From a virus: a stretch of 64,000 nucleotides of DNA. Shown piece after piece: positions 20,964 through 51,076 of the stretch. The stretch's first letter is position 1. Each line of letters starts with the position of its first letter. A model generated the notes under the pieces. It had not been told where the DNA came from, did not search any database, and saw only the letters and a list, made by a program, of their open reading frames with translations. Location: the IMG/VR virus record IMGVR_UViG_3300044591_000896, positions 1-64,000 of that record. One strand, 5' to 3'. Both the position numbers and the translations under genes were made by a program.

Positions 20964-20990
20964 CGACCTGAGTAAGTCGCCAAACTGCTC
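20964..20990 (+). ncRNA. Mini H-type pseudoknot motif, copy 1
   Basis: CGAC-CTGAGTAA-GTCG-CC-AAAC-TGCTC. Confidence 0.5.
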
Positions 20991-21025
20991 TCCCTTATGG
21001 GACAACTACTAACAAAGGTAATACA

Positions 21026-21286
21026 ATGGCAAATCGTTTTAGAGTTGAAATCTATGACGCAAACAAAATGAATGACATCACAATCTATTCAGATCAAGGT
21101 GTTGATAAAGAATACTTAACTGAATTAGTATTCAGCAACATCAGAAACTTTAGCGGAAGAGTTAATGCTTATGTTTTTGATAATGTAAAAAAGAAAAAGA
21201 CAACTGCATTATTTTTTGATGAGAAGACAGTTGAAAAAGTTAATTCAATTACACGTGGCTTAAAGAAAATGGAGTTGGGGTTATAA
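21026..21286 (+). CDS. Hypothetical protein
   Basis: AAAGG RBS. Confidence 0.6.
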   Translation: MANRFRVEIYDANKMNDITIYSDQGVDKEYLTELVFSNIRNFSGRVNAYVFDNVKKKKTTALFFDEKTVEKVNSITRGLKKMELGL

Positions 21287-21467
21287 ACCCCAGCTTCGCC
21301 CGCAATATTGCGGGGTTATCCACAGGTTTACGACTGCTTGTGGAAAACGCCTGAATTTTTGTGAGATTACTCACATGGATCAAATCGGACAAATGACTAA
21401 CTAATCTAGACAATGTCAGTGCCACCTGTTATAATTGCTTAATCAACCAATCGAAAGGAATAAATCC

Positions 21468-22472
21468 ATGGCTCATAATCTAGAAATGGAAAATGGCGAA
21501 GTTGCATTTGCACTTCGTGGCGCACCTGCTTGGCATAATCTTGCCAATCGTATTTTCTCACAAGATGAGGAAGTAACTACACAATCTATGCTTGAAGAAG
21601 CAAAGTTATCAAATTGGAATGTTCGTCTATCTCCAATCACTGAGCACATTCCAGAATCTTGGAATGATGTATCTACTGCATCTCTTGTCATTCGTGATAA
21701 TCCATTCAATGGCGGAACTGATGTTCTTGCTACTGTTGGTAAGCGTTACAAGCCTGTGCAGAATGAAGAATTGTTTGCATTTGCTGATGCAATTCACGAT
21801 GCCAATGCTGATTGCCGTTGGGAATCTGCTGGCTCACTAAAGAAGGGCAAAGTTGTATTCGGTACTGTGGATATTCCTCGTACAATGGTTCTTGACCCAC
21901 AAGGTGCTAACGATGAAACTAAACTCTATCTAATTGTTTGGACATCACACGATGGTTCTGTTGCGGTGCAGGCTGCCGTTACTCCTGTTCGTGTTGTATG
22001 CCAAAACACTCTCAACCTTGCAATGAAAAGCGCAAAGCAATCTTTCAAGATTCGCCACACGCAATCTGTTGAAGGTCGCATTCAAGTTGCTCGTGAAACT
22101 CTTGGGCTTGCTCTTGGATACTTTGATGAATTCGAAAAAGAGGCTCAATCTCTTTACACTCAGGCAATTACTGATGCTGAATTCTCTAAGTTGATTCAGA
22201 CAATCTATCCAAAGCCTGAAAAGGATTCTAAGGGTGCGCTAAAGAAGTGGGAAAATAAGGTTGTTCTACTTGATGACCTTTATCATAACTCACCAACTAA
22301 CGCTACAATCAAGGGAACAAAGTGGGGCGCATTCAATGCACTTACTGAGCGACTTGATTACTATCGTTCAGGTCGTGGTAATTCTGAATCACTAATGGCT
22401 GGTGCATCAGGATTTGACCCTGTACTAACCGCAGAGAAAAATAAAATTCTCAAGTTAGTAAAATCATTTTAA
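21468..22472 (+). CDS. DUF932 family phage/plasmid protein
   Basis: AWH.L, PVQNEE.F.F, SHDGS, TPVRVVCQNTL, GT.WG..NA.TE..D. Confidence 0.85.
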   Translation: MAHNLEMENGEVAFALRGAPAWHNLANRIFSQDEEVTTQSMLEEAKLSNWNVRLSPITEHIPESWNDVSTASLVIRDNPFNGGTDVLATVGKRYKPVQNEELFAFADAIHDANADCRWESAGSLKKGKVVFGTVDIPRTMVLDPQGANDETKLYLIVWTSHDGSVAVQAAVTPVRVVCQNTLNLAMKSAKQSFKIRHTQSVEGRIQVARETLGLALGYFDEFEKEAQSLYTQAITDAEFSKLIQTIYPKPEKDSKGALKKWENKVVLLDDLYHNSPTNATIKGTKWGAFNALTERLDYYRSGRGNSESLMAGASGFDPVLTAEKNKILKLVKSF

Positions 22473-22480
22473 CTAAATGA

Positions 22481-22512
22481 TTAACGGGGGAGAGAAATCT
22501 CCCCCGTTTTAT
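22481..22512 (+). terminator. Intrinsic terminator
   Basis: AACGGGGGAGA-GAAA-TCTCCCCCGTTTT. Confidence 0.75.
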
Positions 22513-22514
22513 TT

Positions 22515-22588
22515 GGTTCGTTAGCTTAGTTGGATAAAGCGCTACCCTGTCACGGTAGAGATCACGGGTTCAAGTCCCGTACGAATCG
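22515..22588 (+). tRNA. tRNA-Asp(GUC)
   Basis: GGTTCGT/ACGAATC acceptor; CTACC-CT-GTC-AC-GGTAG; GGTTCAAGTCC. Confidence 0.92.
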
Positions 22589-22746
22589 CAATAAATATTT
22601 ATGCACATTCATGCATAATTATTCGCCCGCAATGTTAAGGGAAAATTTGTTGTGTTACGGATCACATAAAAAAAGCCCTGAAAACTATAGACAAATGTCA
22701 GTGGGGTCCTGTACAATACTCCTATATAACAACGAGAGAGGTAAAT

Positions 22747-23172
22747 ATGTCAAATAGAACTAAAGGATATACTGGAACAATTGTTGACGGCAAGAAGCTT
22801 GCTGAAATTGCAAACGGTATTTATAATCTACAGTATAGCTCAGACTTTTCTGAGTGCACAGTAGATAATCTATTGTTCATTGAACTAGAAGAGAAGAATG
22901 TTTTTGGTGATCCAAAATATGCTCTTGTATGCTCAGAAGGTGTTGGTTGGGAACAAGATACATATGGTTGCTTGGAAGTCCCTACTAATATTGGACAAAT
23001 GGGCCTATGGAATGGACGTGTATTTATCTCAGTAGATACTGTTAAGTCTTGCCTTACTGATAAGACTGAGGATATATCAGATTACATTAGAGTCTTTGGC
23101 TCCCGCCTTGATTCTAACTGTTCCCTATGGCAATCCAAAATGTCAGTGGCCTCTGGTACACTAGCGATATGA
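22747..23172 (+). CDS. Hypothetical protein
   Basis: GAGAGG RBS after promoter 22696. Confidence 0.6.
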   Translation: MSNRTKGYTGTIVDGKKLAEIANGIYNLQYSSDFSECTVDNLLFIELEEKNVFGDPKYALVCSEGVGWEQDTYGCLEVPTNIGQMGLWNGRVFISVDTVKSCLTDKTEDISDYIRVFGSRLDSNCSLWQSKMSVASGTLAI

Positions 23173-23831
23173 CCAACGAACTCATATCAAGTAAGTATAC
23201 ATTTGTCTGTGACCCAGATGAATGCGACTCATTAATTGAATTAACATCCTCAGACGGATTTGGATTCCCGTCTGGTGTGATGGAACTCACATGTCCATGT
23301 GGCCGTAAGACTACCTTATTGTCAGTGGAGCATGCTACAATTGCACCTTCAAACCAAACGAAAGAGGAAACCATGGAAACAACAATTGGCTCAGATGCAT
23401 TCCACTCACCTGCAGTAGAATACAATCCTGATTTACTAGTTACATATAAAGTAATCAAGGGTTACTCTGACCCTGAATTCACAACATCAAAGGTTACCAG
23501 TCTTGAGTGGGACCTACACAATGGACGACAATCACAAAAGCGTGTTGGTCTTCTTGAATCTAACATTAACACAGTTAAAGATATTATTACTGAAGTTTAT
23601 TCAGACTCAGATGACCAAGATACACTTCGTTCAATCGCTGAAGCGCTTGGCATTGAATTAACTCGAACAGTTGAATTCACTGCAACCATTGAGGTTAGTG
23701 GAACAATTGACCTTAACTTACTTGAAGACTATGACTTCGAAACAGAAATCACAGATAATCTTTATGTTGATTCACAGAGTGGCAACATTGAGATTGGCGA
23801 TACTGAAATCTGTTATGTGAGGGAAGCATAA
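23169..23831 (+). CDS. Hypothetical protein with N-terminal Zn-ribbon and probable internal start at 23373
   Basis: Leaderless start after promoter 23141; internal promoter 23320 plus AGAGGA RBS. Confidence 0.55.
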   Translation: MTNELISSKYTFVCDPDECDSLIELTSSDGFGFPSGVMELTCPCGRKTTLLSVEHATIAPSNQTKEETMETTIGSDAFHSPAVEYNPDLLVTYKVIKGYSDPEFTTSKVTSLEWDLHNGRQSQKRVGLLESNINTVKDIITEVYSDSDDQDTLRSIAEALGIELTRTVEFTATIEVSGTIDLNLLEDYDFETEITDNLYVDSQSGNIEIGDTEICYVREA

Positions 23832-24780
23832 TGTATTTTGAACTTACTGCTCCATCTCAGGTAGCCTTTGCACGGGCTACCTGGGAAGCGGAGTTGATTG
23901 GGTTGGACCCAATGACAATTGCACCATTGACTTTCAATATCGGAACTGGTAGTATTGAGAAGGTAAGTCGTATTCGTGATAAGTATAATCTAATAGAATC
24001 ATACACATCAGACTACGAGCCAACAGGATACACAGGGAGATAATATGTCAGACTACAGAGATGGCTTTGATGACGGTTACAAATTTGGTCGTGAAGAACT
24101 AATTGAAAAACTAAGAGAGATTGATATCTCAGATATCGATTCTTGGTTAGTTGATAAGTTAGCAGACATGATCGAAGGTAACGAGATATGAGTTGGATTG
24201 CATGCGATAAGTGTGGAGATTCAGCCCAAGCTAAATGGATAATTAAATTAGTTGAAGGCGAACTATACTTCTGTGGTCACCATAAAAATAAATATGAGGC
24301 GGGCCTTGCCAAGGTCTCATATGAAATGATAGAATTAGACAAGGTCGAAGAAGTACTACTACTAGAAGAGGCGGAAATATAATGGGAGATAGAGCAAACT
24401 TCGGATTTAGACAGAGCAATGGCGATGTTATTGTTTTGTACGGTCACTGGGCTGGACATGAGATGCTAGCACAATTAGCAAGCGCTGTTGATGCGGCACG
24501 TCCTCGCTGGACCGATGAGGGATATGCAACACGTATTGCTATTTCTCAACTCGTGGGCCAAGACTGGGAGTCGACAACTGGTTGGGGAATTTATATTAAT
24601 ACAATTCCTGACAATGAGCACAAGATTCCTGTAATCGATTGGCGCAGTGGGACCTTTAGTCTTCATGAGGAAGCATCCTATGATGAAAGCACAAAGGTCC
24701 ATGGCATGTCAGATGAACCAATGTTTTCACAAACACTGGATGCATTTGTAAATAAATATTCCTTGGTGCTTTCTAAGTAA
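23831..24780 (+). other. Coupled early ORFs (23831-24043, 24045-24191, 24188-24382, 24382-24780)
   Basis: Overlapping start/stop codons; 24188 ORF has CxxC...FCGHH zinc motif. Confidence 0.65.
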
Positions 24781-25078
24781 CACGGAACCATATGGTGCCT
24801 CTATCAGTCATTAAATGGCCAGGGGTTAAATAAAGCAGAGTTCTTTTACTTTCGTTGGTGATACTCTAGCAGCCTATATAATAGCTTGACAAATCATGAT
24901 CTGGCCCGCAAAAACATAAGGGTAACATATTTTGTTTACGAGGTCAATTTAAAATCGCCTGAAATTCTGTGATCTTGACCACATGCATACAAAATGTGGT
25001 GTGGAACACACCCAAATAGTATTCCATTTGTCAGTGGTCCAGTGTATAATTCTCATATATCAAACGAAAGGATATAAT

Positions 25079-25852
25079 ATGCCAAACTGGGTATATAACA
25101 CATTGACTATTCAAGGACCTAAATCTGAGGTAGATATGATTAAAGATAGATTGAATGCTCCATTTACATTAGCACAGGAGACATTTGGTATGGGTGATAT
25201 TTCTTCTATGGGTTTCCCCACCAAAATTAAATTAGTTGAATATAATAATCCTGTCTTTGCTTTCTATAATATCCACTCATATAAGGATGACGGCATTACT
25301 GATGAGGAATATGCCTGCCAGCCTACACGTTCAGGTGCAGATATCAAAGACCCTAATTGGTTTGCACAAGAAGTAGCACATGCCAAGACTCAAAAAGATT
25401 GGTACTCATGGAACAATACTAACTGGGGCACCAAATGGGATGTAGCCGTATCAGATGATGACAAATATCCAAACACAGAATTACTTGAATATAAATCAGA
25501 GGGTGATGACAACTGGGTTGTCTATAAGTATGAAACTGCTTGGTCACCTGCTGTAACCATTCTAACTAAACTAAGTAATCTTGTTCCTAACTGCCTACTT
25601 ACTTTGGAGTATGAAGAGGAGACAGGTTGGGGTGGAGAATATGAGATTGTCCGTGGTGATGTTAAAACTATTCTAGAATATGAGAATCGTTGCTATGCTT
25701 GCCAATCTTTTGATACATTATCTTATTGTGAAGATGACTGCGGTGAATTCTGCTCTGAATGTAACCAAGGTTCTTGGCAAGATGAAGAGGCTATGAAAGA
25801 ATGTCAGACCCACATGGTACTATTAGAAACTACAGAAAAGGTGAAAGCATAA
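25079..25852 (+). CDS. DUF1281/YubB ferredoxin-like domain protein
   Basis: MPNW..N.L.I.G, WY.W...NWGTKWD, ETAWSP. Confidence 0.8.
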   Translation: MPNWVYNTLTIQGPKSEVDMIKDRLNAPFTLAQETFGMGDISSMGFPTKIKLVEYNNPVFAFYNIHSYKDDGITDEEYACQPTRSGADIKDPNWFAQEVAHAKTQKDWYSWNNTNWGTKWDVAVSDDDKYPNTELLEYKSEGDDNWVVYKYETAWSPAVTILTKLSNLVPNCLLTLEYEEETGWGGEYEIVRGDVKTILEYENRCYACQSFDTLSYCEDDCGEFCSECNQGSWQDEEAMKECQTHMVLLETTEKVKA

Positions 25853-27098
25853 TGGAAGCATTTACAGATACAGTTGGAGAACATATCCTTGGAGCAATTC
25901 AAGTAGATATTGAGCAACATCTATTTGAGCAATGGAATAGCAAAAACTTAGATGAAGGTAGCGATTATGCTGAATATATGTTCATGCAATTTGCTCCTGA
26001 TAGCCTAAAGCAATCATACAATGAGTATTATGGCTATATTGAGGGAGATGAGTTTCTACTATGATGTTAGGATACACATTAAACGATTTAGATGAAATGA
26101 GGGCTGTTGTTACTAAGGCTCTATATGATTCTAAGGGACTGCCGACTGAAAAAGGATTAGAAAAAACAGCAGACTTTTTAGACGGGCTTTGGTCGGAGGG
26201 CTACTTTGACTAGATCATCACACTTCCTAGAATATATAAAGCTTCATTTAATTAGTCTTATCCAGGACTTAGATAACTTACATTCAACTGATGATAACTT
26301 TAAATTTGTTGAAGGACAAATTGAGGCAACCAGGCATTTATTGTCAGTGGCTACTGATATAATGAACTCTTCTAACGAAAGGTATAACAATGAATAATGA
26401 AGACATTGGGCTCCCGCCCCATTTACAGCGCATGGTCAACGCAGGTGTATCAGGCCTTGACATCATGCATGGAGAACTAAAAAACCTAATGCTTATTGCC
26501 GAGCAAGAACTTGCAGAGGCCCAAGCAATTGAGGATGAGTCAGAAGAAGCAATGGACTCTATGGACCGCACACGTTGTGAAGGTGCCCTTGATACATTAG
26601 TGTCTTTATATGATTTAACATATCAACTATCATTTGCGATTGGAGCACGTAATGAAGCCTGAAGATAAAGACAAACTAAATGAATGTTTAAAGATTCTAG
26701 ATAGCACTGACCTTGGTCTGTCCCTGGTTTGGCTATGGACCTGGTCCACAATCAACAACATCTTTGAGGATGAAAGTTACAAGCAGAAGGTTACTATCGA
26801 TCAAATGTGGGACAACCTCTGTGAGGCTGTGGAGGCTGGAATGGGCTTCTCACTGGAGTACGGGGCGGAACAGCACCAAGAAGATGTCCTTGAATGGATG
26901 TTAAATCGTGAATACATTGTAGACACAATGTTTGAAGAAGAGGAAGAAGACGAAGATGAAGATGACTGATGAATACATCAATGATCAATTAAATACAGCA
27001 CAAAAGCTTTTGTGGGGTGGGTCAGAAACAGAAAACATTGAGGCCCATAACATCATTGCTAGATTAATTAAAGATAGAGTTGAACAGACCAATTTAGT
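25852..27098 (+). other. Coupled acidic early ORFs (25852-26064, 26206-26397, 26390-26662, 26652-26969 and short neighbours)
   Basis: Tightly packed plus-strand ORFs; functions unknown. Confidence 0.6.
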
Positions 27099-27194
27099 AT
27101 AAGGGCAAGAAAAAAGGCTTACGGTGACTATTTACAAATCCGTGAAAAGTTGCTATAATTAATACAAATCAATTATCTCGAAAGGATAAATCAA

Positions 27195-27344
27195 ATGACA
27201 ACAAAGCGTGAATATCTAAAGCAGCAGGGCATTACAGTTGGAGCACGAGGACGTTTCTCAGGAGCAGCCAAGGTAGCTTTGCAAGAGGCAGTACAGAAGG
27301 GCATTACCTTCACTGCAGAAAAGCCTGTATCAAAGGCTAAGTAA
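27195..27344 (+). CDS. Lsr2-like DNA-binding mini-protein (49 aa)
   Basis: GAAAGGA RBS; KREYLKQQGITVGARGRFS resembles the Lsr2 C-terminal RGR AT-hook domain; not in ORF track. Confidence 0.65.
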   Translation: MTTKREYLKQQGITVGARGRFSGAAKVALQEAVQKGITFTAEKPVSKAK

Positions 27345-27436
27345 CTAACTGTGGGGCTGGCAATAGCGGTGGGATCCGTGGGCATTGCCAGCCTCGCTTC
27401 ATTTTGGTATAATGTAAGATTGACGAGAGGCGGACT

Positions 27437-27853
27437 ATGAGCAAGACACCAACAGACAAAGTAATGGAATCATTAGTTAATCTAATTGAGCAAGCATACT
27501 TCAATCCTGCACAGGTAGGTCGTTATCTATCTGAGCAACCATACTACACAACTGACCGCACAATGGAAATGATTACTGAAATCATTACACATATTGCAAG
27601 ACGGGCACAGCAAGAACAAGTTGCTGGTAAAACATCAGACGGTCTCTATCTAGCAACTGAGTTAGCCTATGCCTTAGAAGCAATTAAAGAAACATATCAA
27701 TTCAAGACTCTCAAACTACCTAGAACTCTATCTGAGATATCGGCGGGGCTACCAAAAGTAGAACTAAAAGATATAAATAGGAACTACAGATATTCCTGGT
27801 TAGATAATAACAATGAACCAGAATCAGTTAGAATTGAACACCCGTTCTTCTAG
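27437..27853 (+). CDS. Hypothetical protein
   Basis: TTGCCA-N17-TATAAT promoter and GAGAGG RBS. Confidence 0.6.
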   Translation: MSKTPTDKVMESLVNLIEQAYFNPAQVGRYLSEQPYYTTDRTMEMITEIITHIARRAQQEQVAGKTSDGLYLATELAYALEAIKETYQFKTLKLPRTLSEISAGLPKVELKDINRNYRYSWLDNNNEPESVRIEHPFF

Positions 27854-27872
27854 CCAATGTTCCACAAATTAG

Positions 27873-27902
27873 ATCCACATCCACAGGGTGTGGATTTTTT
27901 TT
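27873..27902 (+). terminator. Intrinsic terminator ending the plus-strand block
   Basis: ATCCACAT...GTGTGGAT followed by T run. Confidence 0.65.
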
Positions 27903-28341
27903 GTGATCAAAATGTGTGGGCTTGTGGGCAAAAATTCCCTTTTACGACGAGCTAAAAAATACGCCTGAAATTGTATATAAATGTCGACAAATCTATATAG
28001 AATCATATAACTATTTAAACAAATGTGTGCAGAATTAGCCAAAATCTGTCAAAATTTTTCCATGAAATCTATTGACAATGTGGGCAAAATATGCCTTTTA
28101 CGAGGGCATTGACAAAATCCCTGAAATTTGCATGCATATACAAATGTCGACAAAATGATTGACATTACGGCATCTATATGATAGGGCATGTCCCATTACA
28201 TGTATATCTAAATACATATATATCTGTAGTAATTGTCGACTTATCTATAACCATATTACTCCACAATACTCCACTTTACTCCACATATAAAGCCTCTAGG
28301 AGGCTGATAGAGAGGAGATAATTGGGAGGGGGATATAGGAG

Positions 28342-28830
28342 TTAAGGCGCATATTTGCCACGTATGTTGGCATTAAAGTATGTGCCAGATGTATTCCTAG
28401 ACCATCTGGATATGACATCGTATGTCATTTCATATGTTCTTTCAGTTGGAGCAGATGTTGATCCAGGAGGCCAATTAACATTTACTTGAAATACAGCTTC
28501 ATCTGATCCAGTATCTCCAATTGATTCATATATTAGAGTTGCATTTACTTCAGCTGGGTCTTCTTTCATATTTAGTGGATATTTAGCTTTAGATGGAGTT
28601 ATTGAAAAATTAAACTCATCTGTATCTATATCTTGTCTTACATTCTCTATCCACCATATATAAGCATCATCATCGTTTAAAGGCCATTCTAGTCCCTCTA
28701 GTAAGAATGCCATTGCTACTTCTTCTGAGACCCCGCCTTCTCTTGATATGGTCAAAGCCTCAAGATCAAGTTCATCCTTATATTCATCATATGAAGCCTT
28801 AATTAAATCAGAAACCAGGACCTTTTTCAT
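28342..28830 (-). CDS. Hypothetical protein
   Basis: 162-aa ORF coupled to upstream gene. Confidence 0.5.
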   Translation of the reverse strand: MKKVLVSDLIKASYDEYKDELDLEALTISREGGVSEEVAMAFLLEGLEWPLNDDDAYIWWIENVRQDIDTDEFNFSITPSKAKYPLNMKEDPAEVNATLIYESIGDTGSDEAVFQVNVNWPPGSTSAPTERTYEMTYDVISRWSRNTSGTYFNANIRGKYAP

Positions 28831-29054: not shown

Positions 29055-29402
29055 TATTCTATTATAGCATTTATGTCAGGTACTGACAATACCCTCTCTA
29101 CCGCCGCCGATTTCACTAATTGGGGTCAAATTTTCATGATATTGTATATGATAGTCTCTTAATTGATAAGTTACTGCACAATAGCATATAGGACAATTTG
29201 TGATCCATTGGGACTTATCTTCCCAATGCTTAGGCAACTATGAACTCAATCCCTTAAATGAATGGCATGCACATACGCCTACCACCTTGTATGTTCTATC
29301 TACTTCAGCTAGGTCATTATATGTTGCTACAGCCTGACAGTAGTGGCATTTCTCTTTTGGTTCCGCCTCTAAATAGGCTTCAAGGTTATCCAGGATACCC
29401 AT

Positions 29403-42153: not shown

Positions 42154-43345
42154 TTAAACTAATAATTCAGATGCAGTAATATCATTTCCGCAGTATCTTT
42201 TTTTGATAACAAAATCTCTTACAGACTCTGATCCATACTGTCTTCCAGACAAAATGATTACCCATCTTGGCTCAAATTTTGATGTTATGCATGTCTCGCA
42301 CATTAGAAGATTGATTGGCAATAATGTGGACTTTCTAAGATTAAGTTGATTCTTTGTCTTATTACAGCTATAGCATAAAACTTTTTCCATTATTCATTTA
42401 CCTCTTCGCATTGTGTAGATTTAAAAAATCTAGAAACATCAAATCTGATGTTATCTCTTGAAAATAATCCTGCAAAATCTTTGATCAGTATAGCATATAT
42501 CTCTGGGTCTAGGTGTGGCCTTACTGATAAAAGTATCTCTTCTGCCTTTATGTAGTCTGCCTTTACAAATACACATTCGCCAGCCTTTGGTCTCTTTAAA
42601 ACCTTAGTGGTTATTTTTCCACCTGGCTCATGTAGGCTAACTGTCAAATAGTCTTTTGCAAATCCCCAGTCCTGATATCTATTGTACGCTTCTGCTGCAT
42701 CTATGGCATTATTTAAATGATAGATTGATCTTACTGGGCTTTCTCCATCACGAGCAATTGTAAGCATGTAAGAGGCATGATTGTTCTTTTGGCTTTCTAT
42801 AAAAGACGAAACAACATCTTCATGCTCTGGCTTTAATTCATTCATCTTCTTCCTCGATGTGCATAAGCACAATTTCATTCATGATAACAAAATCTTCGTT
42901 ATCTATAACTTCAACATGTTCTATTCCATCTTTTACATAAGATGCTTCTGATGCATATATTCCAATATTGCCAACTGTTCCGTAGCATTTTTCACTGTAT
43001 ATATATACAATGTTAATTATTTCAGGACTTTCTTTCACCTGGCACTCCCTCTAATTCGCATCTAACACCATAGGACTCTATGATATTTTTAACCATCTCA
43101 ACATATTCTATTACTCTTAATTTCATTGAACCGTCGTACTGACTAAAATTATCTTCGTATAACCTTATTGCTAAAAACTCTGGATACTTTACTATATCCA
43201 TTATTAAATTAGAGGCAGGCTTTTTTAATTCCCGCAATTTTGATGCCATCTCTTTTGAATAGAATACTGGCTTGTTTGGCTCACCAGTCCATTGGTTTAT
43301 GCCATACTTAAAGTGATCTTTACCATTGTTCTTATCAATAAACAT
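42154..43345 (-). other. Coupled hypothetical ORFs (42154-42390, 42390-42845, 42838-43038, 43022-43345)
   Basis: Overlapping ORFs downstream of whiB. Confidence 0.6.
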
Positions 43346-43646
43346 GTTTAGCCTTCAATCTTTTCCACACTTCTTTTGTTTTATGTGAGTTTCTGACCTT
43401 GTCAATAGAACCAGAATTTAAATAAACTCCACCCCATACTCCATAGTCATTATTATTAATTCCGTTTTCATAACATATAGCTATAACTGGGCAAGAAAGA
43501 CATGCCTCATCAATTGTCCTAGCTATATTTATATCTGACTCATACTTATCAAAAAATAGATTTGTGTCCATACCTAGGCATAAAGCAAGCTTATACCAAT
43601 TTGGATCTTCTTCTTCTATACCTAGATTACTTAAAATACTTGACAT
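43335..43646 (-). CDS. whiB: WhiB-family transcription factor
   Basis: Four Cys (ALC...CLSCPV..IC) and GVWGG. Confidence 0.9.
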   Translation of the reverse strand: MSSILSNLGIEEEDPNWYKLALCLGMDTNLFFDKYESDINIARTIDEACLSCPVIAICYENGINNNDYGVWGGVYLNSGSIDKVRNSHKTKEVWKRLKAKHVY

Positions 43647-43860
43647 ATTTTTTAGGCAGCTTCCAGATACCTTTACCGTTGACAGAAATTTTTTCTGCCT
43701 TACCCCATTGATTATCATGGAACATGCCACTTGTATCTGAGTAGCCGTTGTAATCTTTTTTCCAGATAACTAAATCATAATTATCCCAAAAAGATTTTTG
43801 AACTTTTGTTTGAGATCTGTTTATAAATATCTCAACGCCTTGCATTGTTAAATGAAGCAC
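43627..43860 (-). CDS. Hypothetical phage protein
   Basis: GTG start downstream of tRNA-Asn. Confidence 0.55.
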   Translation of the reverse strand: MLHLTMQGVEIFINRSQTKVQKSFWDNYDLVIWKKDYNGYSDTSGMFHDNQWGKAEKISVNGKGIWKLPKKYVKYFK

Positions 43861-43896
43861 TTCATTCCTATCAGTAAGTCCGCCTGATTTATTTCG

Positions 43897-43969
43897 CTGG
43901 CCCACCAGGTCTCGATCCTGGGACATCAGAGTTAACAGCTCTGCGCTCTACCAACTGAGCTATGGGCCA
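43897..43969 (-). tRNA. tRNA-Asn(GUU)
   Basis: TGGCCCA/TGGGCCA acceptor; CAGAG-CT-GTT-AA-CTCTG; T-loop ATCGAGA. Confidence 0.88.
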
Positions 43970-44195
43970 ATAGACAGAACCGCAGCATTACTATAATTAT
44001 ACAGTAACTACTGCGGTTGTGTCAAGAAATTTACTTTTTTTCTTTTATTGAAGATATGTTAACCTTTTTGATCTCATCATCAATATTAAATATATCTCCT
44101 ATATAATCAGTAGCGTCATCTAGGTTAAATGCTTCAACCTCGACCTCTACTAATAATTTTACAATATATTTATGCATAGTAATAGTATAGCATTT

Positions 44196-44507
44196 TTATG
44201 CTTTATTTGTAGCAGCTTTAGTTGAAATTCTACGATTTTCAACCTCTACGTCTGCCACTGTCTTTGCACTCTTATCTACTGTTGAGAATGCTGCATTAAT
44301 TTCATCTGCTGTAAGCTTGCCGTCGTCCATAAAAGCACGAGCTAATTTTTCAACTACAGCCGCTACAGCTGTTAATCCAGCTACGGTTATAGCTTTTGCA
44401 GTTGATATGCCTGCTATTGCTCCAGCGCCAATAACTGCTAGGCCATTTGCTGCGAAGACTGCTATTATACGCATTAATATATTTTTAATATTTTTTACGC
44501 TATTCAT
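44196..44507 (-). CDS. Membrane protein, holin-like
   Basis: Two TM segments; DDGKLT.DEI. Confidence 0.5.
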   Translation of the reverse strand: MNSVKNIKNILMRIIAVFAANGLAVIGAGAIAGISTAKAITVAGLTAVAAVVEKLARAFMDDGKLTADEINAAFSTVDKSAKTVADVEVENRRISTKAATNKA

Positions 44508-44508
44508 T

Positions 44509-44691
44509 TTAGTCCCCCTCTCTATTTCTTATTGGGCTGGTTAATATCCACAGTGCAGTTGTGGCAATAATTCCATAGCCAACAATTGTTTTTGCGCTAC
44601 CATCCAAAACAACCCAAGCAATAAACATACCAAGAAGGGTCCATGCTTGGTCAACCATATCCTTTAGGATATTCTTTATTATTCTTACCAT
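44509..44691 (-). CDS. Small membrane protein
   Basis: WTLLGMFIAWVVL; coupled to 44685 gene. Confidence 0.55.
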   Translation of the reverse strand: MVRIIKNILKDMVDQAWTLLGMFIAWVVLDGSAKTIVGYGIIATTALWILTSPIRNREGD

Positions 44692-47105
44692 CTTCGTCCT
44701 CCTCGTGAACCTGGTGAATTTGCTCCTGAGCCTCCACCAGAACTTCCTCCGCCTCCTGTGCCACCCCCTGTGGCTCCTCCTGTAGCAACTGCTGCTGCAT
44801 TAATTGCTGCACCTGCTGCAACTACTGTGGCAACAACCATGTCTGTTGCCTCTTCTCTTTCTTCATCAGTCATATCTGCGCCTATGCTGCCAAGAGCAGC
44901 TATTGCTGCTGCTGGGTTGGTCAGCGCTGCCTCTAGCAATGCTCCTGGATCTTGAACTAATTCTATATTTGCAGCAACTGCTGCAGTAATTACAAGCGCA
45001 TTACCATTTTCATCTGTTCTGACTTCAACAGGTGTGGATGCTGGTAGGTCAGAATATGAAACACCAGCAGCTTTAATATCTGCTGCTGAAACTGATTGAC
45101 CTGGTGCAAGATTTTCTATTAATTTTTCTACAACAATTTCTTTTTGTGCTTCAGTTAGTTTGCCTTCTTCTGCTGCTTTTTTTAATTCCTCCGCCTCTGC
45201 TTTTGCTGCTTCTGCAGCTTTTGCTTCAGCTTCCGCTTTTGCATCTGCCTCTTCTTGTGCTTTAGCTTCCGCCTCTGCTTTAGCGTCTGCTTCTTCTTGA
45301 GCCTTTGCTTCTGCTTCAGCCTTTGCATCCGCTTCTGCCTGCGCTGCAGCTAATGCCTCTGCTTCTAATCTATCTGCTTCTGCCTTTGCATCTGCTTCAG
45401 CTTGTTCTTTAGCTTCTTGCTCTGCTTTAGCAGCGGCTTCTTCTGCGGCTATACGGTCAGCCTCTGCTTTAGCAGCGGCTTCTTCTGCGGCTATACGGTC
45501 AGCCTCTGCTTTAGCAGCGGCTTCTTCTGCGGCTTTAGCTTCTGCTTCTGCCTTTGCTGCAGCTTCCGCTGCTGCTTTAGCTTCTGCTTCTGCAGCTTCC
45601 GCTGCTGCTTTAGCGGCTGCTTGGGCGGCTGCTTGGGCTGCTGCGGCTTGGGCTGCTGCGGCTTCTGCTGCTGCTGCTTGGGCTGCTGCTTGGGCAGCTG
45701 CGGCTTCTGCTGCTGCTTGGGCTGCTGCTTGGGCTGCTGCTTGCTGCTCTGCATAATAATTAACTGTAACCTGTGCTGCATTTGTCATTGCAGTTACTGC
45801 TTCATTTACTTTTGTTGTTGCTGTATTAGCAAGAGTATCTGCTGCTTGAACTGTTACTGTAGCAGTTTCTGTAAGCTGAGTAAGTGTAGCAACTTCTACT
45901 GCTTTTACCTCTGTTTTATCTACAACTACTGCTTCTGCAGCAGTCTTTTGTGCAGTAAGAGTATTAAGTACTGCGGTATCAGCGTTAAGAGTTGTTTGTG
46001 CAGTAGAAACTGCGGCAACTAACACAGGATCTTTTGTAACTACTGTGGTCGCAAATGCTGTTTGATTTGGAGTAGTAAAATATCCACTTCCATCCTGCCT
46101 CATTATTAACCAGCCAAGTATAACTTGTGAACCTCCACCATTTTCATAGTACCAAATAGTAAAGTCCTGTTGCTTATCTGTAGTGGTGTTATAGGTTGGA
46201 GAGTATTGGCTCCACCCTCCGCCCTTATCAATCCATTCATTAATTGCAAGCTGTCCATCAACATACATCTTTGCTCCATCGTCTGAATGTATTGCATATT
46301 TTACCGTTACTGCTTCTTCTGGAACGGTAATAGTTCCTTCAAATTTTACAATTACATTGTCCACTCTGCCAGAATTAAATACCTCACCGCTTCCAAATTG
46401 GTGAGCTATATAAGGAACTGTTGTGGTTGAAAGTGGTGTTGCATTTTCTGCTGGAAGTGGTGGCTGCTGTCCCCCAGGTGATGCGTATGTTGTTACCTCA
46501 ATCCCATTGGTTGTTGTTTCTACAGCTGAGGCATCTGCTGCTGCCTGTGCTGTAGCAAGATTTGTGGTGTCTGTAGCAACTACAGCAGTCTGAGATTCAA
46601 CCTGTTGAGTTACTGTATTTAAATTTGTTTGAGCATTATTTAGATTTGTTGTTGCTGTGGCAACTACTGCAGTTTGTGATTCAACTGCTGCTTGGGCGGT
46701 TGCTGCAACTGTGACTGCTGTTTCAGCAGACTGTATTGCATTATTGGCTTCTTGCACCTTGACAGTAGCTTCAGCAACAGCTGTGGCTATGGGCTCTTGT
46801 GTTGTAGCAATTGTTGTAGCAGATTGAGTATCTGTGTTTGGTACATTAGCCTGTATTGTTGCCACTATTGTTGATGCTTGAGTTTCTGCTGCTTGTGATA
46901 AAGTTGTTTGTGCCGCCTCTACTTTATCTGCGACTATCTCAACTGTAATAGGAGTGGTTGCTGTGGCGGTATCTGAAACTGAACTTGGATCTGCAGGCGT
47001 TACTTGAACTGTAACTTCCTCTGCATTTGCAATGCTTGGTCCAAAAAGGAAAAGCCAGCCCATTATAAAAAGGCTGGTTAAAGAATACTGTAACTTTCTA
47101 GTCAA
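44685..47105 (-). CDS. Large secreted PA14-domain protein with Ala/Glu/Lys coiled coil
   Basis: Signal peptide; HSDDGAKMYVDGQL...W.D.G...WYYENGG (PA14); hydrophobic C-terminus. Confidence 0.75.
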   Translation of the reverse strand: MTRKLQYSLTSLFIMGWLFLFGPSIANAEEVTVQVTPADPSSVSDTATATTPITVEIVADKVEAAQTTLSQAAETQASTIVATIQANVPNTDTQSATTIATTQEPIATAVAEATVKVQEANNAIQSAETAVTVAATAQAAVESQTAVVATATTNLNNAQTNLNTVTQQVESQTAVVATDTTNLATAQAAADASAVETTTNGIEVTTYASPGGQQPPLPAENATPLSTTTVPYIAHQFGSGEVFNSGRVDNVIVKFEGTITVPEEAVTVKYAIHSDDGAKMYVDGQLAINEWIDKGGGWSQYSPTYNTTTDKQQDFTIWYYENGGGSQVILGWLIMRQDGSGYFTTPNQTAFATTVVTKDPVLVAAVSTAQTTLNADTAVLNTLTAQKTAAEAVVVDKTEVKAVEVATLTQLTETATVTVQAADTLANTATTKVNEAVTAMTNAAQVTVNYYAEQQAAAQAAAQAAAEAAAAQAAAQAAAAEAAAAQAAAAQAAAQAAAKAAAEAAEAEAKAAAEAAAKAEAEAKAAEEAAAKAEADRIAAEEAAAKAEADRIAAEEAAAKAEQEAKEQAEADAKAEADRLEAEALAAAQAEADAKAEAEAKAQEEADAKAEAEAKAQEEADAKAEAEAKAAEAAKAEAEELKKAAEEGKLTEAQKEIVVEKLIENLAPGQSVSAADIKAAGVSYSDLPASTPVEVRTDENGNALVITAAVAANIELVQDPGALLEAALTNPAAAIAALGSIGADMTDEEREEATDMVVATVVAAGAAINAAAVATGGATGGGTGGGGSSGGGSGANSPGSRGGRRW
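45180..45745. repeat. Low-complexity coding repeats (AAQAAA, AEEAAAKAEADRI, AEAKAQEEADAK)
   Basis: Tandem GCT/GCA-rich units. Confidence 0.85.
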
Positions 47106-47172
47106 CTAGGTATCTCCTAAGTAATGCAATATTTTTGCTTACTTAGTAATTATACCAGAATGTTAATTTAAA

Positions 47173-47361
47173 CTACTTAGGATTGTCTGTCTTATAAAAG
47201 CCATTACCTTTAAACTGTATCCCAAATGGAGTAAAGTGTCTTATCATTGGTGACTCACATTCTACACATTCGTAGCCTGGGTCATCTTCCACAATTGATC
47301 TATGTACTGACATGGTTGCATGTGCATCATCTTCGCTGCACTTATACTCATAAACTGGCAT
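47173..47361 (-). CDS. FmdB-family zinc-ribbon protein
   Basis: MPVYEYKC...CxxC...FKGNGFYKTD. Confidence 0.85.
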   Translation of the reverse strand: MPVYEYKCSEDDAHATMSVHRSIVEDDPGYECVECESPMIRHFTPFGIQFKGNGFYKTDNPK

Positions 47362-48100
47362 TATCTTCTCCTAAAATCTCTAGCACAACTTGGTGTATAT
47401 CTGAATCATTCTTACCGAAAGATGTATTAGATATAAGTATATCAGTTACACCCTGATTTTCCAACTGTTTAATTTGATTCTTTATCTCTTCTTTATTACC
47501 AAATATAGTATTATTCTTTTCCTTGCCATTTGGCATGCCGTCATAAATAAACTTAGCGTGGTCATCTATAATAGCTGATAGTCTTACTATCGTTCTTCCG
47601 CCCTGTGATCCAAGCTCATCAAATTTTGATAGGGTGACTATCTGTCCATCTCCAAACTTGGCTACGCTTTCAGCAGTTTCCTTAGATGAACCGCTAAAGA
47701 ATATCTCTGGGCAATTTTTATTTACAGATCTAAGTCTTTCAACAAACAAAGCGCTTTGCTTCTTCCTGTCTTCTATTGAAGTGGGGATACAAAACAATGC
47801 TTGATCATCGTCATATGTGCCAGCTATTATATTCAAAGATATTCTGCCTGGCTCAATCTCATTAAATGCGTCTATCATCATAGAGCAATAGGCTGCTGTT
47901 ATAGCATATGGCCTAATAGCAATCATATACTTAACCTTGTCCTCAGTATTAATTGCATGGGCAGCCTTAATCCAATAGTCTGATTCGTCTGAGTGGAATG
48001 TCAGTAGCATAGAATCATACTTATAAAAGTCTATGACCTTAGATAAAGTTTTTAAATCTTTGGGATTAAGATTGTTCTTGACCATCCAATGAAATTTCAT
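47348..48100 (-). CDS. Luciferase-like flavin monooxygenase (LLM/SsuD-like, shortened)
   Basis: MIAIRP, GRISLNIIAG, FFSGSS, G..EEI..QI..L...GV. Confidence 0.7.
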   Translation of the reverse strand: MKFHWMVKNNLNPKDLKTLSKVIDFYKYDSMLLTFHSDESDYWIKAAHAINTEDKVKYMIAIRPYAITAAYCSMMIDAFNEIEPGRISLNIIAGTYDDDQALFCIPTSIEDRKKQSALFVERLRSVNKNCPEIFFSGSSKETAESVAKFGDGQIVTLSKFDELGSQGGRTIVRLSAIIDDHAKFIYDGMPNGKEKNNTIFGNKEEIKNQIKQLENQGVTDILISNTSFGKNDSDIHQVVLEILGEDNASL

Positions 48101-48300
48101 TTTCTACCCCACTGAATGTGGTTCCACCCACGCTCATGTGCGTAGTAAATAAAGACTTTAACTACTGTCTCCCAAAAAGCAATAGCACCTGATAGAGTTG
48201 CGTCTCCAGTAATCACATAAGCAACAACAAATGATGATAGTGTTCCCCATATGCGATAACTAAGTGCTTTAGTAAATGATCTCGCTCTAGTTACTGTCAT
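48097..48300 (-). CDS. DUF2061 family membrane protein
   Basis: RSFTKALSYR...YYAHERGW..I.WG. Confidence 0.8.
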   Translation of the reverse strand: MTVTRARSFTKALSYRIWGTLSSFVVAYVITGDATLSGAIAFWETVVKVFIYYAHERGWNHIQWGRK

Positions 48301-48500
48301 TCTTTACCCCAATTAAATGAGTTCCATACTCTTTCATGGTAGTAATAACAAATAAAATTAACAGCATTTGTTATAATAGTTGCCATTGTAGCCATGTTTA
48401 TGTCCTTGCTTAAAGCATAAAGAGTAATAAAGGTTGTCAGTAAAGCAATGGCTCTCCATGTCAAAGACTTGACAAATGATCTTTTTTTAGAGACGTTCAT
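48297..48500 (-). CDS. DUF2061 family membrane protein
   Basis: RSFVKSLTWR...YYYHERVW...WG. Confidence 0.8.
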   Translation of the reverse strand: MNVSKKRSFVKSLTWRAIALLTTFITLYALSKDINMATMATIITNAVNFICYYYHERVWNSFNWGKE

Positions 48501-48574
48501 CGTCTACCTCTTCTTTAAACCAATTAGAATACAGTCTTGCCTCTGCATCCGCAATCTTGTTGTCAAAGAAAATG

Positions 48575-49336
48575 TTATAGACCCATTTCAATCCGCTTTT
48601 GAGTAGCTGAAATAGCATGAATTGTTGCCCCCAAATCTACTTGCTCAATCTTATATCCTACATCACGACCATATACAATATTAGTAATGTTAGGTAATCT
48701 TAATACTAATGCACCATCCATAAATTCATCTTTGGCAATATATTCTTTTACCTGATCAAACTTAAGTGGATCCTTCTCGCTTGTTTTATATGTGTTACGC
48801 ACACCAAGCAGCACCTGCTTTGTTCTCTTTCCCGCCTCTTCATATAATGCGTGATGTCCTTCATGCCATGGCTGATACCTACCAAGCATTAATGTAGTTG
48901 GTGCTGACCAATCGTGAAGATTAAAATAACTAATAATTACTGAGGCTTTTTGCTCAGCATCTAGTTTGTGACTATCAAATTTTGCATCAGGATCTTCTGG
49001 CTTTTCAAACATCTTGTTTGTATCTTCAAATCTTCCCTCTTCTATTGTATCCATGAAGATAAGAATGTCTGGCTTACCGAATGCTGCACGAGTTAATTCT
49101 GTAGGACAAACAAAGTCAACTACTACTGGTGCTACTCCTTGCTTGGCAATTAATCTTGCCATCTCTCCCATGCGTCTTGCTTGCTCTATTCTATCTTCAG
49201 CACTAAATCCTAGGTCAGAATTTACTGTTGCACGGACTTCATCTGCATTAAGATGTATTGCGTTAATTCTTTCTTTTAAAGCTTTTGCAAGCTCTGTCTT
49301 TCCAGAACCTGGGAGACCAATTATTTGAATAATCAT
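48575..49336 (-). CDS. cysC: Adenylylsulfate kinase-like domain fused to HxGH nucleotidyltransferase domain
   Basis: GLPGSGKT, LNADEVR...DLGFS.EDR; GRYQPWHEGH...ISAT. Confidence 0.75.
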   Translation of the reverse strand: MIIQIIGLPGSGKTELAKALKERINAIHLNADEVRATVNSDLGFSAEDRIEQARRMGEMARLIAKQGVAPVVVDFVCPTELTRAAFGKPDILIFMDTIEEGRFEDTNKMFEKPEDPDAKFDSHKLDAEQKASVIISYFNLHDWSAPTTLMLGRYQPWHEGHHALYEEAGKRTKQVLLGVRNTYKTSEKDPLKFDQVKEYIAKDEFMDGALVLRLPNITNIVYGRDVGYKIEQVDLGATIHAISATQKRIEMGL

Positions 49337-49355
49337 TTTAATCTTTCTGTTAAGT

Positions 49356-49381
49356 GGGTAGTTTTAGGACATACCCAGGTC
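49356..49381 (-). ncRNA. Mini H-type pseudoknot motif, copy 2
   Basis: GAC-CTGGGTAT-GTC-CT-AAAAC-TACCC. Confidence 0.5.
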
Positions 49382-49387
49382 TCACGG

Positions 49388-49804
49388 TTATTTAATTTTT
49401 AGAATTTTTGGTTGTTTTTCTTTTGGTAGATTTCTAACTACACGGATATGCAACATGCCATCCTTTAGCTCTACACTAGAAACTTCCATGTATTCACTTA
49501 GTTCAAAGATTCTTGTGAACTTACGTGCAGCGATTCCCTTGTGGACAACTTCTGCATCTGTTACTTCTGTAATTTCACCTGTGATCCAAAGACTTCCGTC
49601 TTCAATTGACACAGTCAGATCTTCTCTTGTGAATCCAGCAACTGCCAGCGTTAACTGATAGTTATCTTCGTCTAGCTTTAGCAAATCATATGGCGGGAAT
49701 GCCGTATTGTTTACCTTACTAAGACTATTGAAGCGCTCCAACTCTCTGTTGAAGCCAATAAAAAATGGATCCTTAAATAGATCCATAGCAAATTGTGTTA
49801 CCAT
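49388..49804 (-). CDS. Small heat-shock protein Hsp20 (IbpA-like)
   Basis: FPPYD, LAVAGF, HKGIAARKFTR.F.L, LKDGML. Confidence 0.92.
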   Translation of the reverse strand: MVTQFAMDLFKDPFFIGFNRELERFNSLSKVNNTAFPPYDLLKLDEDNYQLTLAVAGFTREDLTVSIEDGSLWITGEITEVTDAEVVHKGIAARKFTRIFELSEYMEVSSVELKDGMLHIRVVRNLPKEKQPKILKIK

Positions 49805-49891
49805 TTTATTCTCCTTTTAAGCAAGTAATATGGTCACCCCCATTTGGCAGGTGACCATATTATTATACCATTTAGGTGACTAGGATTGCAA

Positions 49892-50299
49892 CTACTTTTT
49901 TGCTTTTGCCCTAGCTTTTGCTAATGCGTCAAAATCTTTTACTTTGGTATCTCCAAGATAACCCCAAGCGTATCCTTCAGATATCATTTGCTCATTAATT
50001 GAAACTTCTGAGCCATCAAGATATACCCACCCTAATATTCTTCCGTATTTTTCTGAGCTGTCCATCTTTTCAGTTTTAATTACAACGCTTTTAGCATCTT
50101 TAATCTTTGACTTAAGATATTCTTTTGACTCAAGACCAAGAACTTTTTCTGCTTTATCTGAAGTTCTGCTTTCTGGTGTATCAATTCCAGCAAGTCTTAC
50201 TCTTGAACTAAAAGATATACTAAATCCTAAATCGATGTCAACATCAATAGTGTCTCCATCAACAACGTTTGTTACTTTTTTTACATAGTATTCAAACAT
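49892..50299 (-). CDS. Thermonuclease (SNase)-like nuclease
   Basis: VVDGDT, RLAGIDTPE, KYGRIL, G.A..Y. Confidence 0.85.
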   Translation of the reverse strand: MFEYYVKKVTNVVDGDTIDVDIDLGFSISFSSRVRLAGIDTPESRTSDKAEKVLGLESKEYLKSKIKDAKSVVIKTEKMDSSEKYGRILGWVYLDGSEVSINEQMISEGYAWGYLGDTKVKDFDALAKARAKAKK

Positions 50300-50922
50300 T
50301 ACTTTGTTGTCTTTTTAGACGCCTTCTTAATGCCTTCTAATGTTGTTGTGTTTACTGTTTCAGTTTTTTTAGCTGCTGGCTTTTCTGCCTTTGGCTTTAC
50401 TGCTACACCAAATGCGGGTCTTCCAAATCCTACTACTGCTACTGGCTGTGACTTGCGTAGCTTTGATCCGTTCTTTTTCTTGTATGCACGAACCTTTAAG
50501 CATGCTTCTCCACCATTTCTTTGGTCTCCCTTTTTATCTGAGCTGGTGTTTCCTTCTACACATGTTACTGTTCCGTCTCCATTGTCTTTTACAACAATTC
50601 CAACGTGAGAAATTCTATCGACACCGTCTCCTGGGAAATCAAAATACAGGATATCTCCTGGCTGTGGTGTTGCTTCTTCTGCTTTCTGCCATGTGCCAGC
50701 TTTAATAAATGCTTGTGCTCCTGCTGGTGTGTAAACTGTGTTAGGAATTTTTACGCCAGCCTCATTTCCGCACCACATAACAAAGCTTCCGCACCATGGT
50801 TGAAAGTTTGCTTTAGCAAACTTGCCATACTTTGTTTCGTTATCTTTTGGTCCTTCAATATATCCAACTTCTGCAAGAGCTACTTCTACTAGTCTTGCCG
50901 CTGATCCTTGTACTGCTGCCAT
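50299..50922 (-). CDS. Endolysin, CHAP domain
   Basis: PWCGSFV.W, PGDI.YF, HVGIV, EGNT. Confidence 0.85.
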   Translation of the reverse strand: MAAVQGSAARLVEVALAEVGYIEGPKDNETKYGKFAKANFQPWCGSFVMWCGNEAGVKIPNTVYTPAGAQAFIKAGTWQKAEEATPQPGDILYFDFPGDGVDRISHVGIVVKDNGDGTVTCVEGNTSSDKKGDQRNGGEACLKVRAYKKKNGSKLRKSQPVAVVGFGRPAFGVAVKPKAEKPAAKKTETVNTTTLEGIKKASKKTTK

Positions 50923-50974
50923 TTTATTTCCTCCTAGAAAATTGATTACTTTAATTATACCATTTTTATATTTG

Positions 50975-51047
50975 TGTCCCCAGATGGGCTCGAACCATCG
51001 ACCCGCAGATTAAAAGTCTGCTGCTCTACCGACTGAGCTATAGGAAC
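50975..51047 (-). tRNA. tRNA-Lys(UUU)
   Basis: GCAGA-CT-TTT-AA-TCTGC; GGTTCGAGCC. Confidence 0.92.
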
Positions 51048-51051
51048 TTAT

Positions 51052-51076
51052 GGCAGTTTTAAGTCTTGCCTAGGAC
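51052..51076 (-). ncRNA. Mini H-type pseudoknot motif, copy 3
   Basis: GTC-CTAGGCAA-GAC-TT-AAAAC-TGCC. Confidence 0.5.

Follow-up and report, generated by a model that had tools for sequence, protein, structure and literature searches.

We analysed the first 64,000 nucleotides (hereafter, the window) of the IMG/VR record IMGVR_UViG_3300044591_000896, an uncultured phage genome of 115,479 bp with direct terminal repeats and a G+C content of about 38%. The window carries genes for DNA polymerase III alpha, RecA, a class II ribonucleotide reductase and a DUF932 protein as well as six tRNA genes, and related contigs in IMG/VR number in the hundreds. An initial annotation, made from the letters alone, had pointed to three copies of a short H-type pseudoknot at the 3' ends of genes, and direct reading of the window located all three exactly where they had been placed (Table 1). 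Copy 2 starts 5 nt past the stop (TAA) of an Hsp20 gene and ends 19 nt ahead of the ATG of a kinase gene, while copy 3 starts 4 nt past the TAA of a CMD-family gene and ends 3–4 nt ahead of tRNA-Lys, to which it had already been assigned as a neighbor. The description of the element as lying just after a stop codon is thus accurate for these two copies, but not for copy 1, which starts 37 nt past the stop of a 158-aa open reading frame (ORF), a gap that amounts to about 9 nt in relatives. Likewise, stem 1 comprises four base pairs in copy 1, but three in copies 2 and 3.

The consensus of the element reads NNNC-CU-NRGYA-W-GNNN-(N1-4)AAAC-URCYN. The knot spans 26–29 nt and consists of stem 1 (S1; 3–4 bp, closed by a C-G pair), loop 1 (L1; CU), stem 2 (S2; 5 bp), a 1-nt junction (loop 2; A or U) and an A-rich loop 3 (L3) ending in AAAC. 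A degenerate pattern of this kind has exactly three matches in the window, where 0.51 would be expected, and the same number is attained in 2 of 100 shuffles; taken alone this count is weak evidence, and the support comes from relatives. One other match in the 115-kb genome (at 78498) falls within a coding sequence and has none of the rest of the motif. A relaxed structural scan of this genome brought no further copies, with eight matches in its reversed control.

Loci anchored on neighboring genes show the motif again at syntenic positions, across hundreds of related contigs; five near-complete relatives possess two to four copies each, and the reversed pattern has no match there. A letter-anchored scan in which pairing was not required returned 193 matches, 161 of which have all four stem-1 and all five stem-2 pairs. 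In an alignment of 44 distinct copies, standard pairs occupy 96.2% of the cells, compared with 77.5% after shuffling (none of 500 shuffles attains the observed value) and 27–45% in slid registers. Six of the nine pairs vary on both sides, which bears out the earlier claim that both stems covary. The never-varying pairs, C4-G13 (44/44 copies), G9-C25 and A11-U23, are found at or near the helical junction, while the outer three pairs of stem 1 covary. At the syntenic site of copy 1 in most DUF932-anchored relatives, for example, CGAC/GUCG is replaced by CAAC/GUUG, AGAC/GUCU, UGUC/GACA or AUAC/GUAU. In stem 2, the loop G-Y-A pairs with U-R-C, covarying at Y-R, and at one pair 25 copies have C-G, 16 have U·G and 3 have U-A. 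Twelve columns are invariant (C4, C5, U6, G9, A11, G13, A19-A21, C22, U23 and C25) and position 24 is A or G; the CU loop and the AAACU that had been described as fixed are indeed so throughout the alignment. The fold is therefore well supported, and the element is real and widespread.

Table 1. Positions of the pseudoknot copies and of associated features. Coordinates refer to the window unless a locus handle is given.
Feature	Coordinates	Strand	Remarks
Pseudoknot copy 1	20964..20990	+	27-nt unit
Copy 1, S1 CGAC/GUCG	20964-20967 with 20976-20979	+	L1 CU
Copy 1, S2 GAGUA/UGCUC	20970-20974 with 20986-20990	+	junction A, L3 CCAAAC
Small hairpin right after copy 1, UCCC-UUAU-GGGA	20991..21002	+	position of coremin hp2
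158-aa ORF, no family assigned	20450..20926	+	cistron upstream of copy 1
GC-rich hairpin and U run adjoining tRNA-Asp	22485..22514	+	site of pseudoknot in 51 related loci (after DUF932)
Pseudoknot copy 2	49356..49382	-	S1 (A)GAC/GUC(C), L1 CU
Copy 2, S2 GGGUA/UACCC		-	junction U, L3 UAAAAC
Hsp20 gene	49388..49804	-	cistron upstream of copy 2
tRNA-Lys(UUU)	50974..51047	-	downstream of copy 3
Pseudoknot copy 3	51051..51077	-	S1 (U)GUC/GAC(U), L1 CU
Copy 3, S2 (A)GGCA/UGCC(A)		-	junction A, L3 UAAAAC
CMD (AhpD-like) family gene	51082..51594	-	cistron upstream of copy 3
20-codon ORF	L301:1220-1282, L311:109-171	+	UGA within knot
20-codon ORF, further loci	L303, L317, L336, L353, L356, L363, L367, L374, L381, L390, L393, L408, L409		

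The pairing belongs to the sense strand, because each U·G wobble would be an A·C mismatch on the opposite strand, and this points to RNA (or non-template DNA) as the folded molecule. A DNA-level signal, i.e., a promoter with NAAACT as the -10 element or a single-stranded DNA structure, is accordingly a most improbable explanation. It could account for the sense orientation of the copies upstream of genes and tRNAs, and transcription starting 7 nt past the T of AAACT would hit the tRNA 5' end; TTGACA is found directly upstream in two related contigs, and tRNA-Met and tRNA-Asn of the window have classical promoters at the equivalent place. Yet, covariation with free choice of bases is unlike protein-DNA recognition, the wobbles would be mismatches on the template strand, no -35 or other upstream signal is conserved, and the knot is linked to the upstream gene (see below). 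A T7-like promoter was rejected in particular, as neither this genome nor two other complete carriers contain PF00940, none of the three thus encoding a T7-like polymerase, while a phage of the T7-like family Autographiviridae has one copy only. A host promoter was rejected as well, with nothing conserved upstream and linkage to the upstream rather than the downstream gene. The two classical promoters themselves consist of exact TTGACA and TATAAT boxes about 18 nt apart, at 52631-52660 (-) and 43996-44025 (-); one lies 9 nt ahead of tRNA-Met and the other 26 nt ahead of tRNA-Asn, the boxes of the latter being located within a CCGCAG...CUGCGG inverted repeat.

Search of the phage metagenomes in IMG/VR revealed widespread relatives of the element. 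With the pattern CCTGAGYANG-N6-AAACTGCTC, in which stem 2 is fixed and the three outer stem-1 pairs are free, at least 120 contigs of 4 to 194 kb and varied base composition match. The same pattern with a flexible loop matches the species-representative genome collection across many bacterial phyla; among the matches listed are Saccharibacteria and other groups of the candidate phyla radiation, Aminicenantes, Anaerolineae, Firmicutes, cyanobacteria, Bacteroidota, some Proteobacteria and one Methanobrevibacter metagenome-assembled genome (MAG). Some of these bacterial and archaeal matches are probably prophages or mis-binned phage contigs. Among the matches listed there are 208 distinct sequences with 41 different combinations of stem-1 arms, and 133 of them pair at all three free positions, as opposed to 6 and 21 in two shifted controls (chance about 5%, binomial p about 1e-114). 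Cultured phages with one copy each were additionally recovered by BLAST: the copy lies between the genes for ribonucleotide reductase and glutaredoxin (nrdJ-glutaredoxin) in Lentibacter phage vB_LenP_ICBM1, ahead of a P-loop ATPase gene in Paracoccus phage ParKuw1, after gene 85 of Mycobacterium phage Labelle and, with three of four stem-1 pairs, occurs in Erwinia phage Berlingot. A 47-kb contig encoding a T7-like RNA polymerase (L228) accommodates four knot copies in 1.5 kb of ORF-poor sequence (minus strand, ~2750-4260).

The element was found neither in Rfam nor in the papers searched. Scans with Rfam 15 at the gathering thresholds, covering the window and 15 bacterial or phage loci, returned only tRNAs and one cobalamin riboswitch elsewhere, and permissive E-value scans of copies 1 and 2 gave a spurious mir-27 match beside copy 1 and a weak match to GP20-b RNA (RF03003), a phage motif upstream of GP20 genes (PMC10690425). 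GP20-b is the only Rfam model that scores on the element itself (14.6 bits against a gathering threshold of 36.2, E = 0.32, copy 2 only). The 5' half of GP20-b can be drawn as the same knot, with GUC/GGC as stem 1, CCGCA/UGCGG as stem 2 and a UAAAA loop, and the inner G-C, C-G and A-U pairs of stem 2 are shared; however, its loop 1 is AG instead of CU, its loop 3 ends in G, the model is 30 nt longer and the gene context is another one. A knot variant after the Hsp20 stop in four loci (L467, L499, L500 and L010) has a loop 3 ending in AAAAG and GCCC or GCUC as the 3' arm of stem 2; the A-U pair at the junction is thereby replaced, and in these traits the variant resembles the GP20-b consensus. 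We found no paper describing a coremin-like knot of phages or bacteria, although the supplements of two catalogues (PMC10690425, PMC8040213), which were not part of the search, may list the knot without a name.

In size, the knot is reminiscent of the luteoviral frameshifting knots of beet western yellows virus (BWYV) and potato leafroll virus (PLRV). As in these, loop 1 has 2 nt and starts with C, the junction is a single nucleotide, and loop 3 is rich in A and could line the stem-1 minor groove. It differs from them by the lack of a slippery site, its location outside the ORF and a stem 2 of 5 rather than 3 bp. The BWYV knot does not stall the exonuclease Xrn1 (PMC10321173).

While no Rfam family matches, and the initial annotation was to that extent right in not assigning one, the core of the element coincides with the coremin motif, or xrRNA-C, of eukaryotic exoribonuclease-resistant RNAs (xrRNAs). 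Coremin (GUCCGAAGACGUUAAACUAC) occurs in beny-, cucumo- and many other eukaryotic RNA viruses and has a variant termed xrRNA-WCC (PMC6546385, PMC10520033, PMC10321173). It is built of a short hairpin (hp1), whose YGAD loop is closed by a C-G pair, a spacer and a second hairpin (hp2) of at least 4 bp, and stalls Xrn1 one nucleotide ahead of hp1 (PMC6546385). With G-C as the closing pair, Xrn1 is stalled poorly. The AAA and CUAC of the spacer are intolerant of mutation (PMC6546385), and loops of 6–8 nt are functional, including CGAGUAA, which resists Xrn1 (PMC10520033). In the Watson-Crick variant the loop pairs with the spacer to form an H-type knot comparable to that of BWYV (PMC10321173). Taken together, the positions essential for stalling are the C-G closing pair, the first loop pyrimidine, the loop G and A, AAA and CUAC (PMC6546385, PMC10321173). 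Eleven of the twelve invariant columns of the phage knot map one-to-one onto these positions, U6 being the extra one. Both motifs have a stem 1 of 3–4 bp with a C-G loop-closing pair, a loop that starts with a pyrimidine and contributes its G and A to pairs with C and U in a URC further downstream, a spacer UUAAAC with the essential AAA, and the dimensions of an H-type knot; the loop of copy 1 is CUGAGUAA, compared with CGAGUAA in the functional coremin variant, and a hairpin resembling hp2 follows directly after copy 1 and its relatives. Several traits set the two apart. The loop of the knot is the 8-nt CUNRGYAW, with Y first, A-D last and the G at position 5 instead of 2, so that it agrees only in part with the consensus YGAD (4 nt) or YGNNAD (6 nt) as written; stem 2 is a full Watson-Crick helix of 5 bp, with an additional U in loop 1 and a 1-nt junction; the knot is carried by dsDNA phages and bacteria; and the context of the knot suggests a role for the RNA upstream, on its 3' side, whereas coremin shields downstream RNA from a 5' exonuclease. 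On this comparison of sequences and predicted pairings, we regard the knot as a structural relative of coremin and not as its member.

The resemblance raises the question whether the knot might be a prokaryotic xrRNA that stops a machine arriving from the 5' side (RNase J, the ribosome or Rho) and so saves RNA downstream, such as a tRNA, the next cistron or a terminator-ended fragment of the 3' untranslated region. This seems to us rather unlikely, but it is a serious rival to the reading favored below. The coincidence of the stalling essentials with C4-G13, C5, G9, A11, A19-21 and C22-U23-R24-C25 speaks for it, together with the loop of copy 1 and the small hairpin at once after this copy, which in relatives is kept with compensating stems (tccc/ggga, acacc/ggtgt, tcc/gga) and a UUCG loop; the knot-terminator arrangement of some bacterial loci would moreover give a stable 3' fragment similar to the subgenomic flaviviral RNA (sfRNA). 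Yet, hp2-like hairpins right after the knot are not enriched (38/270 versus 36 and 43 in controls), the knot moves with the upstream and not with the downstream gene, and a cut at a tRNA or hammerhead would part the knot from the RNA downstream. The carriers also include the Erwinia phage and MAGs labelled Polynucleobacter, Coxiellaceae and Gammaproteobacteria, groups (with the Erwinia host) in which RNase J is not known to occur.

Which gene the knot accompanies was determined from natural exchanges of its neighbors. The kinase gene that follows copy 2 has 62 distinct upstream contexts, and the knot is present only in the eight with Hsp20 as the neighbor. Conversely, in Hsp20-anchored loci the knot lies right after the stop in 68 of 79 cases, followed by at least five different genes, and the other 11 loci have the variant knot ...UUAAAAG-GCCC. 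A knot follows DUF932 in 51 loci, in front of tRNA-Asp (45), tRNA-Met (1) or no tRNA at all (5). From these three tests we conclude that the knot belongs to the upstream cistron, as an appendage of its 3' end. Similarly, the end of the 158-aa ORF gene stays ahead of the knot in relatives while the downstream gene changes. In five loci, including the genome studied here, the DUF932 site of the knot is occupied by a GC-rich hairpin followed by a U run and abutting tRNA-Asp, in this genome CGGGGGAG...CUCCCCCG then UUUUAUUU, which touches the first base of the tRNA. A classical 3' hairpin can therefore replace the knot at a syntenic site. If this hairpin terminates transcription efficiently, tRNA-Asp would have no promoter of its own.

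The DUF932-pseudoknot-tRNA-Asp module is common to several phage groups (L183, L190, L196, L220, L232, L250, L257, L259, L285 and the window lineage), and DUF932 is the upstream gene in 13 of 81 non-lineage cases. Genes of the leading-region or anti-restriction type (ArdA, ArdC, SSB, DUF3768 and DUF2958) flank knots too. As for the surroundings of copies 2 and 3, a run of auxiliary genes extends over 47348-52196 (-) and encodes an AhpC/TSA peroxiredoxin, the CMD (AhpD-like) protein, tRNA-Lys, a CHAP endolysin, an SNase-like nuclease, Hsp20, a luciferase-like monooxygenase and a P-loop kinase fused to a cytidylyltransferase-like domain.

Downstream of the knot the genes vary (scaffold, SSB, ArdC, helicases, PhoH and others). 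Among phages that are unrelated, its end lies 3–5 nt ahead of tRNA-Lys, Asn, Asp, Met, Trp and Ala, and of a tRNA with a CUA anticodon called Pyl by ARAGORN. Since a gap of 3–4 nt leaves no room for a promoter, transcription of these tRNAs has to pass through the knot. The majority of tRNAs at these loci lack a knot (72/267), which, together with the diversity of the flanking genes, argues that the knot is neither a tRNA leader nor a pathway-specific switch. An intrinsic terminator was rejected as an identity of the window copies, none of which is followed by a U run; tRNAs lie 3–4 nt past the knot, and in some relatives a U run is found 4 nt past the knot.

The same data bear on whether the knot is a binding site for a protein or small ligand that controls the gene boundary by attenuation, antitermination or translational coupling, which we consider improbable. 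Strict conservation of the loops and junction (the 12 invariant columns) across hosts from many phyla would agree with binding, as would a size and shape near those of preQ1-I and the luteoviral knots, the U run after some copies and the presence of one copy only per cultured phage. Nevertheless, the downstream genes share no common family, the knot showed no alternative pairing to a terminator or Shine-Dalgarno sequence, the nearby tRNAs have to be read through, and no Rfam riboswitch matches the element. The preQ1-I riboswitch (RF00522) was rejected, with no match at E up to 10 for copies 1 and 2; its loop 2 carries a ligand-pairing C, while that of the knot is a single A or U, hence no preQ1-like pocket. 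Of the roles proposed in the initial annotation, ligand or protein binding that regulates the downstream gene thus fits poorly, because the downstream genes are diverse and unlinked to the knot, and nuclease blocking tied to processing fits the context best.

Sites at which RNA can be cut, tRNA 5' ends and hammerhead ribozymes, are often found 3–6 nt past the knot. RNase P acts at tRNA 5' ends, and its cut would leave an upstream message that ends 3–5 nt past the knot, as would be expected at tRNA-Lys after copy 3. Three knots directly precede a hammerhead ribozyme (CUGAUGAG...CGAAA), two in L344 and one in L338. The L344 modules lie on the minus strand about 270 nt apart, and their type III ribozymes have a predicted cleavage site 6 nt past the knot, so that the upstream product of the predicted cut would retain the knot at its 3' end.

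From this context we infer that the knot may well be a 3' boundary cap that blocks 3'-to-5' exonucleases and shields the upstream message, a reading to which we give a little less than even confidence. The knot would be transcribed as the 3' end of the preceding cistron, and the polycistronic phage transcript would be cut a few bases past it. RNase P would make this cut at a following tRNA (copy 3), a hammerhead ribozyme would do so in other phages and, after copies 1 and 2, an ordinary endonuclease would act in the AU-rich spacer. The upstream message would then end in the knot and outlive its neighbors. By analogy to the BWYV knot, the loop-1 C could sit in the major groove of stem 2 as a C5+·G9-C25 triple, while adenines of loop 3 could make A-minor contacts along the stem-1 minor groove, and a small knot stabilized by such a triplex might be impassable for 3'-to-5' exonucleases or offer them nothing to engage; PNPase, RNase II and RNase R are not known to engage tails as short as 3–6 nt. 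The GC-rich hairpin with a U run at the DUF932-tRNA-Asp junction, a classical barrier to 3' exonucleases, supports this cap. The proposed principle, a cut just past a compact structure that caps the upstream RNA, would have parallels in the MALAT1/MEN-beta 3' end, where RNase P cuts at a tRNA-like structure next to a protective triple helix, and in the early mRNAs of T7, which end in hairpins cut by RNase III, although in sequence and fold both are unrelated to the predicted phage cap.

Several observations weigh against a 3' cap. Coremin, the closest motif, blocks a 5'-to-3' nuclease, i.e., has the opposite polarity (PMC6546385), and copy 1 displays the full coremin layout, including the hp2-like hairpin that coremin needs against Xrn1. 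The linkage to the upstream gene could also mirror the movement of gene cassettes. In some bacterial loci an intrinsic terminator lies 5–30 nt past the knot, where a 3' cap would be redundant; ten cases with the terminator upstream of the knot are a single family, so that counts of upstream versus downstream terminators are uninformative. Furthermore, in 15 bacterial loci from several phyla a conserved 20-codon ORF, MKRFMVPRV[AS]HCxxGCxxxS, terminates at a UGA that consists of U6-G7-A8 of the knot, and in many of them a terminator follows. The ORF occurs in Aminicenantes, Anaerolineae, Thermodesulfobacteriota, Spirochaetota, Actinomycetes and other MAGs next to varying genes and has no match in Pfam or NCBIfam; variation at its third codon positions argues that it is coding. 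With the stop inside the knot, a ribosome must melt the knot to terminate, which a cap leaves unexplained. Finally, in 43 of the 81 non-lineage cases the stop codon precedes the knot by 5–9 nt, a distance that brings a terminating ribosome just into contact with the knot; this may be either mere compaction or functional.

Those last findings would suit a knot that acts on the ribosome of the upstream ORF, in termination, readthrough, frameshifting or a block of re-initiation, since 5–9 nt is the spacing of recoding stimulators. U6-N7-N8 reads UGA or UAG in about three quarters of the copies, and coremin itself blocks scanning ribosomes (PMC10520033) and stimulates -1 frameshifting (PMC10321173). 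We nonetheless find such a role very unlikely, given that in-frame stops follow at once and that the distance between stop and knot ranges from 4 to >35 nt, with 37 nt at copy 1. A -1 frameshift signal was rejected for the window copies: no X XXY YYZ heptamer precedes them, and the ORFs end ahead of the knot.

Should the knot be an exonuclease barrier, it would represent a class of exoribonuclease-resistant RNA for which we found no report in phages or bacteria, and it would offer a structural link to the still unsolved coremin fold, for which the phage copies provide hundreds of natural covariations fixing stem 2, while work on plant viruses inferred stem 2 from mutants only. As a barrier, the 27-nt knot could also serve as a small portable stabilizer for synthetic operons. 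On this idea, the scattered single tRNA genes and hammerheads of phage operons would double as cut sites for mRNA ends. All this is open to direct testing, as phages with one copy each are in culture for Mycobacterium smegmatis, Lentibacter and Paracoccus. In broader terms, we put forward, somewhat more tentatively than the cap itself, that the coremin-type knot extends beyond eukaryotic RNA viruses and may be an ancient or convergent, near-universal nuclease-proof module of phages and bacteria, which phages would combine with RNase P, via tRNA genes, or with hammerheads to cut polycistronic transcripts into capped, long-lived messages; this would make it a prokaryotic counterpart of both the xrRNAs and the MALAT1 3' end.

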